Positions 5,101 through 42,244 of a DNA stretch of 45,866 bases are shown here, in pieces (position 1 is the first letter of the stretch; each line of letters begins with the position of its first letter). Source of the DNA: Betaproteobacteria bacterium RIFCSPLOWO2_02_FULL_65_20 (GTDB lineage: Bacteria > Pseudomonadota > Gammaproteobacteria > Burkholderiales > SG8-39); contig MEQZ01000087.1 in NCBI GenBank assembly GCA_001770425.1, positions 1 to 45,866 of the forward strand. Direction: 5' to 3'. Position numbers and translations under genes: made by a program. The notes beneath the pieces were generated by a model. That model did not search any database. It was given only the letters and a program-made list of their open reading frames with translations, and was not told the DNA's origin.

Positions 5101-5657
5101 TCGGCGAGCCGGTGCTCGGTTTCGCGGCGCCTTTCCTTGTATTTGGATACGCCCGCCGCTTCCTCGAGGAATACCCGCAGATCCTCGGGTCTAGCCTCGA
5201 TGATGCGGGAGATCATGCCCTGCTCGATGATCGCGTAGGCTCGCGGCCCCAGGCCCGTGCCCAGAAAGATGTCCTGCACGTCGCGGCGGCGCACATGGGT
5301 GTTGTTGATGAAGTAGGAGGACTCACCATCCCTTTGCAGCACGCGCTTCACCGCGATCTCGGCGTACTGGGTCCACTGTCCCGCCGCCTTGCCCAGGCTG
5401 TTGTCGAACGTGAGCTCGACGCTCGCGCGCGCAACCGGTTTGCGCAGCGAGGAGCCGTTGAAGATCACGTCCTGCATGGAATCCCCGCGCAGGGCCGCGG
5501 CCCTGGATTCGCCCAGGACCCAGCGCACGGCGTCGATGATGTTCGACTTGCCGCAGCCGTTGGGGCCCACGACGCCGACGAGTTTGCCGGGGACGTTGAT
5601 CGACGTGGGGTCGACGAACGACTTGAATCCGGCGAGTCTCAGGTGGGTGAGGCGCAT
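2133..5657 (-). CDS. smc: chromosome segregation protein SMC (1174 aa)
   Basis: The N-terminus has Walker A GPNGCGKSN in MRLTHLRLAGFKSFVDPT. Long Glu/Ala/Arg/Leu coiled-coil arms flank a hinge. The C-terminus has the signature LSGGEKALTAIALVF and Walker B FCLLDEVDAPLD. Confidence 0.97.
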
Positions 5658-5765: not shown

Positions 5766-6194
5766 ATGCCAAGCAAACCAAGCAAGCCGAAGCAGCCTTT
5801 CGCCAGCTTCCCCAATCCCAATCCCGGACGGGATTACCTGATTCACATGCAGATTCCTGAATTTACCTGCCTGTGCCCGCTGACCGGCCAGCCGGATTTC
5901 GCCACCATTGCGCTCGATTACATCGCCGACCGGCGATGTGTCGAGTTGAAGAGCCTCAAGCTCTACATCTGGGCGTTCCGCAACCAAGGCGCATTCCACG
6001 AGGCGGTCACCAACCGGATCCTCGACGACCTGGTGCGCTTGCTCGCGCCGCGCTTCATGCGCGTCACGGCGAGGTTCTTCGTCCGCGGCGGCATTTATAC
6101 CACCGTGGTCGCAGAGCACCGCAAGCGCGGCTGGAAGCCTGCCCAGCCCATCGAGCTGCCGGTGGTGGAGGACCAGCCCAGCACCCGGTCTTAG
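5766..6194 (+). CDS. queF: NADPH-dependent 7-cyano-7-deazaguanine (preQ0) reductase, short type-I QueF (142 aa)
   Basis: The catalytic-Cys context is [14 protein letters not shown]. The QueF motif is [15 protein letters not shown]. Size fits the unimodular QueF class. Confidence 0.92.
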
Positions 6195-6202
6195 GCGCTT
6201 AT

Positions 6203-6335
6203 GACTCAAGTGTTGACGCAATTGGCGAAGACTTCGGGTTTACATACGTCTCCCGATTTAGGGAAGTTGCGAAGTTGCAACTTCCCTAAATCGGGAGATT
6301 GATGGAAGCCAAGACCGACCAACCGGCCTGCCCGG
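6203..6335 (+). repeat. palindrome-core intergenic repeat, copy A (core 6249..6298)
   Basis: The core is TCTCCCGATTTAGGGAAGTTGC-GAAGTT-GCAACTTCCCTAAATCGGGAGA: perfect 22-bp arms with a 6-nt loop. The left flank GACTCAAGTGTTGACGCAATTGGCGAAGACTTCGGGTTTACATACG and the right flank are alignable to copies B-E. It lies between queF and dapC. Confidence 0.9.
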
Positions 6336-6343
6336 CGCGACGC

Positions 6344-6349
6344 TATAAT
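6344..6349 (+). promoter_or_regulatory. candidate -10 element (perfect TATAAT) for dapC operon
   Basis: GCTATAATG ends 35 nt upstream of the dapC GTG, immediately right of repeat copy A. The -35 is weak. Confidence 0.3.
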
Positions 6350-14863: not shown

Positions 14864-14939
14864 TGGGGTGGCCGATGGGATTCGAACCCACAACAACTGG
14901 AATCACAATCCAGGACTCTACCATTGAGCTACGGCCACC
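14864..14939 (-). tRNA. tRNA-His (GTG)
   Basis: I folded it by hand as G(-1)+GTGGCCG/CGGCCAC acceptor, D arm GCTC-AATGGTA-GAGT, anticodon arm CTGGA-TTGTGAT-TCCAG, T arm GTGGG-TTCGAAT-CCCAT, then C73 and an encoded CCA. The extra G-1 opposite C73 is the His identity mark. Confidence 0.95.
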
Positions 14940-14983
14940 ACTGTACTCTGTAACCTGACTCCAGCACCGCCCGGTGGCGCTGC

Positions 14984-15061
14984 TGGCGTGCCCGGCGGGA
15001 CTCGAACCCACAACCCCCAGCTTAGAAGGCTGGTGCTCTATCCTGGTTGAGCTACGGGCAC
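14984..15061 (-). tRNA. tRNA-Arg (TCT)
   Basis: The fold is acceptor GTGCCCG/CGGGCAC, D arm GCTC..GAGC, anticodon arm CCAGC-CTTCTAA-GCTGG, T arm GTGGG-TTCGAGT-CCCGC, with an encoded CCA. Confidence 0.93.
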
Positions 15062-15093
15062 TTGACCGGACCGGGTGCTACCGCACGTCTGTC

Positions 15094-15170
15094 TGGTCGG
15101 GGTGGAGAGATTCGAACTCCCGACATCTTGCTCCCAAAGCAAGCGCGCTACCGGGCTGCGCTACACCCCG
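15094..15170 (-). tRNA. tRNA-Pro (TGG)
   Basis: The fold is acceptor CGGGGTG/CACCCCG, D arm GCGC..GCGC, anticodon arm CTTGC-TTTGGGA-GCAAG, T arm GGGAG-TTCGAAT-CTCTC, with an encoded CCA. Confidence 0.93.
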
Positions 15171-19313: not shown

Positions 19314-19348
19314 GTGGTAGGGATGATTGACGGGGCGCGATTTTAACA

Positions 19349-19505
19349 CCTAAACCGGACGAGCCGGAACCAATCGGGCTGCCTTGTTTGACGCCACTTC
19401 TCTCTCGAATTCGGACCGTTGCAACTGCGCAACGGTCCGAATTCGAGAGACGTATACAAAACCCAATTCTTCGCCATTTCCACAATCGCTTGTGTCACAA
19501 GAGAC
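19349..19505 (-). repeat. palindrome-core intergenic repeat, copy B (core 19401..19450), divergent variant, reverse orientation
   Basis: The core is TCTCTCGAATTCGGACCGTTGC-AACTGC-GCAACGGTCCGAATTCGAGAGA, with perfect 22-bp arms. After reverse complementing, the flanks match the family: ATGGCGAAGAATTGGGTTTTGTATACG on one side and GGTTCCGGCTCGTCCGGTTTAGG on the other. Confidence 0.85.
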
Positions 19506-19538
19506 TAGAATACCAGTGTTGAAACTTGCGGAAAACCG

Positions 19539-20360
19539 ATGCAAACACCCTTGAAACCGGTCACGGTATCCGTTGCGCCCAACGGCGCCTACAAGACGAA
19601 GAAAGATCACCCCGGGCTGCCGATGACGGCAAAGGAACTCGGGGAAACCGCCGCCGCCTGCCATGACGCCGGCGCGGCGATGATTCATCTCCACGTGCGC
19701 GACCACGACGGTGTGCATCTGCTGGATGAGCACGCCTATCGCACCGCCACCGCAGCGGTTGCGCGCGCCGTCGGCCGCGACATGGTGGTGCAGATTACGT
19801 GTGAAGCAGGCGGCAGGTACAACCGGCAGGAGCAAATGGCGGTCGTGCGCGCGGTGGTGCCGGAGGCGGTGTCGATTGCGCTGCGCGATATCGTGCCCGA
19901 TGCGGCGGCCGAGGGTGACGCCGCGGCCTTCTATGCGTGGTTGCGCCGCGAGGGTGTGCTCATCCAGACGATTCTGTTCACGCCTGGGGAGGTGACGCGC
20001 TATTACGCGCTGCGCGAGCGCGGCGTGCTGGGAGAGGGCAAGGATTTCCTGTTGTTCGTGCTCGGGCGCTACACGCCCGGGCAAGTGTCGGTTCCGGCCG
20101 ATCTGCTGCCGTTCCTGTCGGTGTTCCGCGGCGATGTTCCCTGGGCCATGTGCGCGTTCGGGCGCCAGGAGCACGCCTGCGCCGTGACGGCCGCAGCGCT
20201 CGGGGGTCATGTGCGCGTGGGATTCGAGAACAATCTGCACGCTGCGGACGGCAGCGTTGCGGCAGACAACTCGGTACTGGTCCGCCAGGCAGCGGATGGC
20301 GCGCGATTTCTCGCGCGCCCGCTCGGGAGCGCGCAGGACCTGCGCGAGCTCTATTCCTGA
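19539..20360 (+). CDS. 3-keto-5-aminohexanoate cleavage enzyme family protein (BKACE/DUF849, 273 aa)
   Basis: APNGAYKTKKDHPGLPMTAKEL is followed by the Zn-ligand motifs AAMIHLHVRD (HxH) and HVRVGFEN (Glu). These are typical of the DUF849 TIM barrel. Confidence 0.8.
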   Translation: MQTPLKPVTVSVAPNGAYKTKKDHPGLPMTAKELGETAAACHDAGAAMIHLHVRDHDGVHLLDEHAYRTATAAVARAVGRDMVVQITCEAGGRYNRQEQMAVVRAVVPEAVSIALRDIVPDAAAEGDAAAFYAWLRREGVLIQTILFTPGEVTRYYALRERGVLGEGKDFLLFVLGRYTPGQVSVPADLLPFLSVFRGDVPWAMCAFGRQEHACAVTAAALGGHVRVGFENNLHAADGSVAADNSVLVRQAADGARFLARPLGSAQDLRELYS

Positions 20361-20716
20361 TCCGGCGTCCGGTCGGCGACGGCAGCGTCGATCAACTGGG
20401 TCAGGCGCACACCGCGTTCGACCGAGGCGTCGTATTCGAAATGCAGCTCGGGTGTGTTGTGCACCTTGATCCGGCGCCCCAGGGCCGAGCGCAGAAACCC
20501 GGCCGCGCGCCGCAGTCCGGCCTGCGATTGGGCCAGCGCCTGTGCATCGCCGAGGGAGGTGAAAAACACCCTGGCGTGCGCGAGATCCGCCGAGACATCG
20601 ACGTCGGTGATCGTAATCATGCCCACGCCCGGATCCTTCAACTCGGTGTGCAGGATCTCCGACAGTTCCCTCTGGATCTGCTCGGCGATGCGGTTAAGTC
20701 TTGCGGGATTGGCCAT
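20351..20716 (-). CDS. rbfA: ribosome-binding factor A (121 aa)
   Basis: MANPARLNRIAEQIQRELSEIL..DPGVGMITITDVDVSADLAHARVFF..PELHFEYD is the RbfA sequence. Confidence 0.95.
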   Translation of the reverse strand: MANPARLNRIAEQIQRELSEILHTELKDPGVGMITITDVDVSADLAHARVFFTSLGDAQALAQSQAGLRRAAGFLRSALGRRIKVHNTPELHFEYDASVERGVRLTQLIDAAVADRTPDQE

Positions 20717-20741
20717 GGTCGTCCCTTTCCCTGGTACGGGA

Positions 20742-20882
20742 GGCCCTGAGCCGTCAGAGCCTCAGCCGAGCAGCGAGGCTTGTCTTGCCTTACACCATCT
20801 CCCGATTTCGGGAAGTTGCAACTTCGCAACTTCCCGAAATCGGGAGACCTAATAAAACCTGAACGCTTCTCTAATGTCGCCT
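20742..20882 (-). repeat. palindrome-core intergenic repeat, copy C (core 20798..20847), reverse orientation
   Basis: The core on the plus strand is TCTCCCGATTTCGGGAAGTTGC-AACTTC-GCAACTTCCCGAAATCGGGAGA, with perfect arms. The reverse-complemented flank GAGAAGCGTTCAGGTTTTATTAGG matches the left flank of copy E. It lies between the infB stop and the rbfA start. Confidence 0.88.
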
Positions 20883-20895
20883 GGACCATAAGGCG

Positions 20896-23430
<2,535 letters not shown>

Positions 23431-33755: not shown

Positions 33756-33857
33756 GATGTCCCTTTCAGTAGAGAAAACGCCGAAATTATCGGCTAAATC
33801 AGGACGCTTTGCCATGGCGCGGACCGCGCGCCGCAGACGGACGATCAGTCCGTTGCA

Positions 33858-33998
33858 ACTCGAGTGTTGACAGACATGGCGATGAGTGGGTTTCAGGTCT
33901 CCCGATTTTCGGAAGTCGCGAAGTTGCGGCTTCCGAAAATCGGGAGATTATGAAAATGCAAAATCAAGCAGGCCGGTTCCGGCTTGTCCGGCTGAGGG
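33858..33998 (+). repeat. palindrome-core intergenic repeat, copy D (core 33898..33947)
   Basis: The core is TCTCCCGATTTTCGGAAGTCGC-GAAGTT-GCGGCTTCCGAAAATCGGGAGA, with one T-G pair and the rest perfect. The right flank TTATGAAAATGCAAAATCAAGCAGGCCGGTTCCGGCTTGTCCGGCTGAGGG is closely similar to that of copy E. Confidence 0.88.
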
Positions 33999-42081: not shown

Positions 42082-42100
42082 GATGTCCCTGGTCTCGATT

Positions 42101-42244
42101 GACTCAAGTATTGCAGGTGAAGAATTTGGGTTTATTAGGTCTCCCGATTTCCGGAAGTCGCAACTTCGCAACTTCCGGAAATCGGGAGATTAGGAAAAGC
42201 AAAATCGACCAGGTCTGGTTGGTTCCGGCTTGTCCGGTTTAGGG
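42101..42244 (+). repeat. palindrome-core intergenic repeat, copy E (core 42140..42189), loop flipped relative to flanks
   Basis: The core is TCTCCCGATTTCCGGAAGTCGC-AACTTC-GCAACTTCCGGAAATCGGGAGA, with one C-A mismatch on the plus strand that becomes G-U on the minus strand. The left flank GACTCAAGTATTGCAGGTGAAGAATTTGGGTTTATTAGG aligns with copy A. The right flank TTAGGAAAAGCAAAATCGACCAGG..GGTTCCGGCTTGTCCGGTTTAGGG aligns with copies D and B. Confidence 0.88.

Follow-up and report, generated by a model that had tools for sequence, protein, structure and literature searches.

REPs are imperfect palindromes of 20–40 nucleotides (nt) that carry a GTAG or CGTC tag beside the stem, and two REPs in inverted orientation form a REPIN (PMC3733652). 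As described by Di Nocera et al., the GTAG terminus of a REP often supplies the TAG stop codon of the flanking gene (PMC3733652). The REP/REPIN-RAYT systems of Pseudomonas and enterobacteria (PMC3116915, PMC3733652) are the closest known relatives in kind of the subject of this paper, a family of intergenic repeats of which five copies (A to E, in order of position) lie in a stretch of 45,866 nt from Betaproteobacteria bacterium RIFCSPLOWO2_02_FULL_65_20 (contig MEQZ01000087.1, positions 1 to 45,866), i.e., the whole of the DNA that was analysed, henceforth called the window. At the centre of each copy is a 50-nt palindrome, the core, which lies between two non-palindromic flanks. The family is probably a non-autonomous mobile repeat of about 155–160 bp, resembling REPs and miniature inverted-repeat transposable elements (MITEs) and having no terminal inverted repeats. 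Once a copy has inserted, its flanks decay as neutral DNA would, and the self-complementarity of the palindrome is almost perfectly retained wherever intact copies are common.

The family and the REP/REPIN-RAYT systems have much in common: both consist of short, extragenic, abundant, palindromic sequences that lack terminal inverted repeats and persist vertically; both often lie near the 3′ ends of genes and have a TAG-containing terminus able to supply a stop codon; both maintain the complementarity of a long hairpin; and for both, mobilization in trans is presumed. In contrast to a REP, the element is a single perfect hairpin with 22-bp arms amid about 110 nt of asymmetric, non-palindromic flank, and its TAG tags are about 55 nt away from the palindrome, whereas those of REPs adjoin the stem. 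As far as we read the arm variants, neither arm harbours an internal hairpin like that of a REP: the interpretation of each arm as a REP hairpin (TCCC...GGGA), and hence of the core as a REPIN, was ruled out, as the variation within the arms at those positions is uncompensated. Also, no RAYT gene flanked by element sequence was found in the loci. With the elements of the IS200/IS605 group of insertion sequences (ISs) and their non-autonomous derivatives (PATEs), the family shares the lack of terminal inverted repeats, a polar insertion at a short fixed target, apparently without classical duplication, a subterminal hairpin near a cleavage-like site at the right end, and tandem arrays, since the right end recreates the target. 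It differs from them in that no cognate TnpA was found, the left-end hairpin is unsupported, the hairpins of the two ends are dissimilar and the strand bias relative to replication appears weak (71:39). We know of no IS200/IS605 element with a large perfect central palindrome. The Correia elements of Neisseria and the ERIC/IRU elements of enterobacteria and Yersinia are, like the present family, intergenic repeats (100–170 bp) with long hairpins and with TA-containing insertion sites; they are co-transcribed with neighbouring genes and their hairpins affect mRNA processing, as may also be the case here. However, they are palindromic from end to end or carry terminal inverted repeats of some length, whereas here only the central 50 bp are palindromic and the target is polar. 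Finally, hairpin-loop inversions in chloroplasts and quasi-palindrome mutagenesis in bacteria share with the family a recurrent inversion of the loop between perfect arms, with one arm corrected against the other in the same event; those cases are single loci, whereas here the behaviour is common to a dispersed and apparently lineage-dependent family. The element thus has neither the defining features of REPs and REPINs, nor the terminal repeats of MITEs, nor the two hairpins of IS200/IS605 elements, nor the extended palindrome of ERIC and Correia elements, and it is therefore filed as a new family within the small non-autonomous intergenic repeats. An earlier sequence-only reading of the window had stated that the repeat fits no simple category, which is fair with respect to ISs, classical MITEs, terminators and CRISPR.

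To sample the family, the species representatives of GTDB (one genome per species) and metagenome contigs were scanned for the exact arm TCTCCCGATTTNNGGAAGTNGC. The GTDB collection gave only two true matches, both in metagenome-assembled genomes (MAGs) named 'Betaproteobacteria bacterium' and with one copy each; therefore, the species of the window is absent from that collection. Among metagenome contigs, at least 118 stretches contained the exact arm. A profile built from the five window copies was then run over about 0.93 Mb of retrieved related metagenome DNA (loci numbered with the prefix L below), in which it detected 164 non-overlapping elements, so that the further copies for which the sequence-only reading had proposed a search do exist. 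The similarity in DNA between the window and the retrieved loci was limited to the element. Counting the elements beyond the first in each locus, the density is one per 22 kb, and in the window it is one per 9 kb; the earlier estimate of hundreds of copies genome-wide is reasonable at these densities, and a few hundred copies per genome is a fair extrapolation. Viral and plasmid collections held nothing meaningful that matched the element, and a full-text literature search with core strings returned unrelated primer matches only. The names of the records (C687J26845, ANAN16-1, RIFCSP...) presumably refer to aquifer sediment and groundwater datasets. The hosts are uncultured Betaproteobacteria, apparently of groundwater, and the family is lineage-restricted. 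In the MAG Betaproteobacteria RIFCSPLOWO2_02_FULL_63_19 (L003, 583–688), a run of N, i.e., a scaffold gap, directly follows the element; the repeat may break or gap assemblies, such that copy numbers in MAGs may be underestimated.

The ends and the consensus were defined by aligning 134 distinct copies together with 80 nt of context on each side. The unit is about 155–160 nt long (consensus 160 nt) and comprises a left flank of 56 nt, the 50-nt palindrome (22-bp arms and a 6-nt loop) and a right flank of 54 nt. In order, the consensus reads TAGTCTCTTATGACTCAAGTGTTGACAGAATTGGCGAAGAATTTGGGTTTATATACG (left flank), TCTCCCGATTTTGGGAAGTTGC (arm), GAAGTT (loop), GCAACTTCCCAAAATCGGGAGA (arm) and TCATGGATGGCAAAGCGAGCCAACCTGTTTGGTTCCGGCTCTGCCGGCTTAGG (right flank). 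Its boundaries are sharp, with conservation beginning at 5′-TAG and ceasing at CTTAG(G)-3′, so that the unit is longer than the 140 nt or so first assigned to it. The absence of terminal inverted repeats, of a U-tract and of an adjacent transposase, as noticed earlier, was confirmed from the consensus ends (TAGTCTCTTATGAC... and ...GCCGGCTTAGG, which are not complementary), from terminator scans and from searches of the neighbouring genes. At the end of the right flank is a small CCGGC-N3-GCCGG hairpin, the loop of which is hypervariable. In the consensus fold, pairing is confined to the central 50 nt on either strand, and RNAalifold found no conserved structure outside the core; this limitation of the fold also ruled out an ERIC- or Correia-like hairpin over the whole length. 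The core of copy A, folded as single-stranded DNA, has a free energy of -27.3 kcal/mol (z = -12.4), and the whole of copy C, folded as RNA, has one of -77.6 kcal/mol (z = -7.9). Scans of the consensus for a sigma-70 promoter and a terminator were negative; no intrinsic terminators were present in the regions scanned, and a T-run after the core is absent from all five window copies. At gathering score, Rfam recognizes only three tRNAs in the window and leaves the element unmatched, while at a relaxed threshold the element matches only models of eukaryotic microRNA hairpins, at 12–29 bits against cutoffs of 55–100. The core site of integron attC sequences (GTTRRRY) was not seen in the apex by eye. 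The apex GGAAGTTGCGAA resembles the inverted repeat of IS5, which we take to be GGAAGGTGCGAA; the likeness was judged a coincidence and kinship with IS5 was rejected, as the context is an inverted repeat and not a direct duplication of the IS5 type.

The most distinctive feature of the family, which is absent from the sequence-only reading, is its placement relative to stop codons and ribosome-binding sites; that reading likewise lacks the polar TAG ends and the flip-flop of the loop. Of the 64 elements with a stop triplet at the left end, there are 32 in which the left TAG terminates an open reading frame (ORF) of 200 codons or more, and of 74 right ends, read as TAA on the opposite strand, 17 end such an ORF; for random stop triplets in the same DNA the rate is 6.7% (p ~5e-21 for the left end and ~6e-6 for the right end). 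Where a gene starts rightward of the element, its start codon is 7–15 nt past the right end (...TTAG/G, the slash marking the junction) in 30 of 62 cases, and the terminal AGG is then at the Shine-Dalgarno position. Immediately outside the element, T occupies position -1 in 53% and G occupies position +1 in 83% of copies, which gives a flanking consensus of (c)(T)TAG/G. The left end is TAG in 58 of 134 copies and CTA is not among the common variants, such that the element has a single polarity between two TAG triplets. Most of the classifiable contexts (58/84) are spacers between co-directional genes, and further copies occupy convergent or divergent spacers; among the elements in tandem gene contexts, 44 are oriented with the genes and 14 against them. 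A typical site thus comprises the TAG stop of the preceding gene and the ribosome-binding region of the following one; insertion regenerates both and does no visible damage.

A mobile role, one of several candidates in the sequence-only reading, is supported by the sharp ends, by orthologous filled and empty sites, by tandem dimers that share a TAG and by the extra copy found per ~22 kb. For several intergenic regions, one contig has the element where the orthologous region of another contig has none. A clean empty site in L065 (...CAATAG/GGTGAGCC) corresponds to a filled site in L105 (...GCTATAG-element-TTTAG/GGGCGAGCC), and a second clean empty site is the universally conserved infB-rbfA junction in L151 (...CGCTTTAG/CGGGAAAGG...ATG, also given as CGCTTTAG/CGGGAAAGGTCGGACGCC-ATG), where the spacer is 18 nt; the same junction holds an insert of 150–190 nt in the window, L145, L147 and L149. 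At the clean empty sites a single TAG is retained. In two independent tandem dimers (L065 and L080), the right end of one unit joins the left end of the next via one shared TAG. Taken together, the orthologous empty sites and the TAG-sharing dimers indicate insertion at TAG/G. Flank-bearing elements without a core were absent among the copies examined (~1.1 Mb of loci). The tandem arrays are located at 5640–5960 in L065, at 2500–2800 in L080 and at 5470–5690 in L074, the second unit of the latter having a truncated left flank. At 1–60 in L083, a right end (...GCCGGCTTGG) is fused straight to the middle of the palindrome of another element, as might result from nested insertion or from rearrangement at the hairpin.

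Insertion at TAG/G would be carried out by an enzyme encoded elsewhere in the genome. A single-strand mechanism of the HUH type (IS200/IS605 or RAYT) appears to be the best fit, because the target is polar and non-palindromic, terminal repeats are lacking and a subterminal hairpin stands beside a cleavage-like TTAG; a site-specific recombinase with a CTTAG core would be the second choice. The layout (c)TTAG/element...CTTAG/G matches polar insertion of the IS200/IS605 style and the core of a site-specific recombinase equally well, and the assignment to an HUH-type enzyme is a tentative one. The sequence-only reading had proposed a search for RAYT or IS200/IS605 TnpA genes, for which IS200 TnpA and Escherichia coli RAYT sequences served as tblastn queries. 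One RAYT-like Y1 gene was found (L047, 506–1310), 4.5 kb from an element, with an E value of 1.9e-12 for Pfam Y1_Tnp and a score of 72 bits, under the cutoff of 80, for NCBIfam REP_Tyr_transpos. It is flanked by conserved inverted repeats of its own of 13–19 bp (GGGACAGACCACTAAG ... TTAGTGGTCTGTCCCC), which are unrelated to the element though they contain TTAG, and its stop codon is the TAG of that TTAG. The RAYT-like gene also occurs on L155, and most of the contigs that carry it are 1–3 kb long, which suggests that it sits among assembly-breaking repeats. A parent IS with the same ends was not found in the ~1.1 Mb of retrieved loci that were searched. No transposase was present among the recurrent neighbour proteins, which are ABC ATPases and permeases, acyl-CoA synthetases, TctC-type binding proteins and molybdopterin dehydrogenases. 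Those elements that lie inside operons would put a very stable hairpin into the mRNA, probably as a side effect.

The palindrome has been maintained in a manner different from that of its flanks. Among 77 distinct cores, 98.2% of arm cells pair, i.e., about 2% of pairs are mismatched. Twelve of the 22 arm pairs have changed on both sides, in 108 cells, a number equalled in none of 500 shuffles, with a maximum of 18 cells in slid registers. Judged against the asymmetric flanks, the loop has the orientation GAAGTT in 43 elements and AACTTC in 39, and it has inverted in place between orthologues (L008/L059, L011/L103, L116/L094 and window copy C/L145), together with mirrored changes in the arms. 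L143 and L144 have an identical QueF and an identical 68-nt left flank, and in them the core of copy A has a flipped loop and a double change from A:T to C:G. The two contigs were produced by different assemblers, and each stops precisely at the palindrome of copy A (L143, 4427–4533; L144, 3158–3266); mixed loop states in those samples may have broken the assembly there. The core of L143 and L144 is the same as that of copy C, such that a mis-join to another copy is possible. In co-directional contexts, read on the sense strand, there are six G:T and six A:C mismatches, and the orientation of the loop with respect to transcription is 20:18. As the mismatches are strand-symmetric and the loop orientation is random, the constraint appears to be at the level of DNA and not specific to RNA. 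Over ten orthologous pairs, the flanks of the element have diverged by 22–37%, the adjacent coding DNA by 14% and the arms by 7–9%, the conservation of the arms being inflated by ascertainment, since loci were retrieved via an exact arm match. In elements without such a match, the arms differ from the consensus by 13.7% and the flanks by 27.8%. Within the arms, positions 1–4, 8–11 and 18–22 are nearly invariant, whereas positions 5–7 and 12–17 co-vary freely. An orthologue of copy B in L146 (1555–1800) is broken after the left arm and continues with an apparently inverted partial left flank and a different 45-nt palindrome (CCGCGTTTTCCGTACGGATGCTTTTTATCCGTACGGAAAACGCGG).

The infB-rbfA loci were retrieved via homologues of RbfA and not via the element, and therefore constitute an unbiased sample. 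In the lineage that is 91% identical (L145/L146), there is a full copy at this junction with a near-perfect palindrome. In lineages of 82–83% identity (L147/L148, i.e., Betaproteobacteria RIFCSPLOWO2_12_FULL_63_13, and L149), the spacer is of similar length, gives only a weak alignment and has lost the complementarity of its arms; with the family profile, no element was found in the L147/L148 and L149 stretches (20 kb and 12.7 kb). As decayed remnants occupy the same site in sister lineages, the insertion is old and its core survives only where intact copies are common. Such lineage dependence would argue against a fixed, locus-specific function. Maintenance would then depend on something that acts across copies: a trans-acting protein which recognizes the hairpin or palindrome, or copying within the hairpin or between copies, or both.

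Several observations weigh against a family of mobile repeats inserted by an HUH-type enzyme acting in trans and kept by constraint on the core, in addition to the inflated conservation of the arms. Filled and empty sites could be paired only between species whose flanks are 75–90% identical, so no recent insertion was caught. The deviations from TAG at the two ends of one copy are uncorrelated, which makes a 3-bp duplication inseparable from the entry, behind a TAG, of an element with a TAG terminus of its own. About 13 extra nt (GGCCTCCCGTACCA or similar) separate the right end of copy C from the conserved GGGAAAGG...ATG of rbfA (window ~20716–20745); they are common to all filled lineages, including L145 and L147, and absent from the empty L151. 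The candidate stem of an IS200/IS605-type left-end hairpin (AGTC/GACT) is not kept across copies, and compensated changes in the right-end hairpin were looked for across copies and none were found. No gene bounded by element flanks was found in ~1.17 Mb of loci, which were searched for solo arms and for orphan left and right flanks. The RAYT-like gene of L047 is unsupported as a partner, given its unrelated inverted repeats and the homologues on L152–L154, which lie in stretches of 11–20 kb without an element. The orientation of elements relative to the local GC skew is 71:39, a figure confounded by co-orientation with genes, and the window, which is a single skew domain on one replichore, holds three copies on the + strand and two on the - strand. 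Known IS200/IS605 elements have a stronger bias of orientation relative to replication.

What keeps the core can be explained in more than one way, and two of the candidate roles in the sequence-only reading, a REP-like mRNA hairpin and a protein landing pad, would each be able to account for it. The palindrome might be retained as an RNA hairpin in polycistronic mRNAs, as a barrier to 3′ exonucleases or as an RNase III site in the manner of REP, Correia and ERIC elements, such that the stabilities of cistrons are uncoupled and the mobile element is merely the vehicle. The location of 58 of the 84 classifiable contexts between co-directional genes, exactly from stop codon to ribosome-binding site, the perfect 22-bp duplex available from either strand, the z score of -7.9 for copy C as RNA and the complementarity retained through many double changes are all in keeping with this. 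However, G:U pairs on the transcribed strand are in no excess over A:C (6 vs 6), the loop is random with respect to transcription, the near-invariant arm positions (1–4, 8–11, 18–22) are not required by a pure stem, copies also lie in convergent and divergent spacers, and the same insertion at the essential infB-rbfA junction has decayed in sister lineages; we regard an RNA role as unlikely. The strand symmetry of the constraint fits a binding site for a lineage-specific dimeric protein that binds DNA or hairpins, either a domesticated mobilizing enzyme or a protein of nucleoid type, with selection keeping the cores. Near-invariant blocks (TCTC, ATTT and GTTGC in each arm), separated by positions that co-vary freely, and the retention of cores only in lineages with many intact copies point the same way. 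Yet no candidate protein was found, occupied sites inside operons would block transcription, and the estimate of conservation is inflated by the way the loci were retrieved, so that a bound protein is a possible but somewhat doubtful explanation. Alternatively, the DNA could be without function and correct itself: template switching at the hairpin, or short conversion between copies, would flip the loop and copy one arm onto the other without selection. Template-switch mutagenesis at quasi-palindromes and frequent small loop inversions in chloroplast hairpins are precedents for such events, and they agree with the near 50:50 orientation of the loop, the loop flips with mirrored arm changes between orthologues and near-identical strains, and the 2% of mismatched arm pairs without strand bias. 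What self-correction does not account for is that unbiased conversion does not slow change, yet the arms change 2–4 times more slowly than their own flanks; and it should act in any lineage, yet the infB-rbfA copy has lost complementarity in L147 and L149. Self-correction can accordingly be entertained, with some doubt, as a possible cause.

Two further explanations concern the element as a whole. One is a conventional MITE, mobilized through cut-and-paste by a DDE transposase that generates a target duplication of 3 bp (TAG) or 2 bp (TA); the size and copy number of the element are typical of MITEs, and with such an element the TAG on both sides and the single TAG shared within tandem dimers would agree. 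Such an origin is quite improbable, as terminal inverted repeats are wholly absent, the deviations at the two ends are uncorrelated, and the target is non-palindromic and always of the same polarity (TAG at the left end in 58/134), which a symmetric transpososome would not give. The other, a family of small-RNA genes, each transcribed from a promoter of its own within the left flank and terminated within the right one, had been among the candidate roles in the sequence-only reading and did not hold up. The left-flank consensus does contain TTGACA, and there is a small GC hairpin near the right end; but there is no -10 box at a workable distance and no U-tract, the consensus scans were empty, Rfam gave no family (only generic hairpin noise far below gathering scores), RNAalifold detected conserved structure in the core alone, decay is faster in the flanks than in the neighbouring genes, the loop occurs in either orientation, and the mismatches are strand-symmetric. 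Small-RNA genes are thus a highly improbable explanation.

For the probable mobile repeat, it is conceivable, though we would not expect it to be so, that the 50-bp palindrome is the recognition site of a trans-acting protein, possibly a domesticated mobilizing enzyme, which, in lineages where the family is alive, preserves hundreds of cores in an intact, flipping state as the remainder of each element decays. If this were true, the family would represent a long-lived partnership of repeat and enzyme analogous to REPIN-RAYT, differing from it in the asymmetric arms of the element, the central perfect hairpin and the polar TAG target, and the element in this partnership would be pre-adapted to insertion between a stop codon and the ribosome-binding site that follows it. 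For the biology of mobile DNA, the family combines a lack of terminal repeats, a polar and non-palindromic target, insertion that preserves stop codon and ribosome-binding site, and a core hairpin that outlives the rest. The precision with respect to stop codon and ribosome-binding site, the polar target and the lineage-dependent maintenance of the core are unusual, and can be tested on metagenome time series that already exist. The contrast of core-keeping with core-losing lineages offers a comparative handle with which the responsible protein or process could be found, and the flip-flop of the loop is a natural read-out of hairpin-templated DNA events in wild populations. For annotation, the hundreds of copies extrapolated per genome would inflate intergenic spacers; copies share stop codons with real genes, and in some metagenome assemblies they coincide with contig ends (L143, L144).

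In the window, the repeat of five copies noticed in the sequence-only reading was recovered at all five places: repeat detection finds the family independently, the 24-nt apex occurs four times at up to three mismatches against 0.00 expected from shuffles, and the flanks of the five copies are alignable, with a mean column identity of 68%. Copies A, B and C recur with 94–100% identity in 8–10 independently assembled metagenomes (ENA, JGI), copy A being identical in eight independent assemblies by blastn; therefore they are not assembly artefacts, an origin that had been left open. Copy A (6192–6338, +; core 6249–6298, with 22-bp arms and the loop GAAGTT, recovered by repeat detection) lies at the junction of queF and a dapC-like aminotransferase gene and has a degenerate right end. 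Copy B (19349–19507, -; core 19401–19450) lies between a BKACE gene (+) and truB (-), with its right end facing truB. Copy C (20745–20898, -; core 20798–20847) is within the infB-rbfA junction and co-oriented with the operon. Copy D (33846–33997, +; core 33898–33947, with two arm positions unpaired) lies between the genes of a short-chain dehydrogenase and a DUF4340 protein (both -), to which it is anti-oriented, and its ends are altered to CAG and CTGAGG. Copy E (42090–42243, +; core 42140–42189) is likewise anti-oriented, between genes for an ABC-transporter binding protein and a permease (both -); its right end is canonical (GGTTTAGG), and its loop, AACTTC, has the opposite orientation, with respect to the flanks, to the loops of A and D. 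The core consensus proposed earlier for all five copies does not fit the diverged copy B (TCTCTCGAATTCGGACCGTTGC-GCAGTT-GCAACGGTCCGAATTCGAGAGA), in which 6 of the 22 arm positions depart from the family consensus, all six mirrored on the opposite arm. The copies had also been placed 10–115 nt away from coding regions, which has to be revised: the left TAG of copy A (6192–6194) is the stop codon of queF, and that of copy C (20896–20898, -) is the stop codon of infB.

Hexamers resembling -10 boxes lie just past two right ends, TATAAT after copy A (6343–6348, +) and TAAAAT after copy B (19340–19345, -). The hexamer ahead of truB is kept as TACAAT or TAGAAT in L151, L146 and L147, including the L151 site, which has no recognizable element; therefore, it looks like the native promoter of truB and not a part of the element. 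Elsewhere in the window, a cluster of tRNA genes (14864–15170, -) comprises His-GTG, Arg-TCT and Pro-TGG. The BKACE-family gene (19539–20360, +) stands between rbfA and truB in convergent orientation and shares 10 nt with the 3′ end of rbfA. L151 lacks this gene, and there rbfA adjoins truB as in the usual nusA-infB-rbfA-truB operon.

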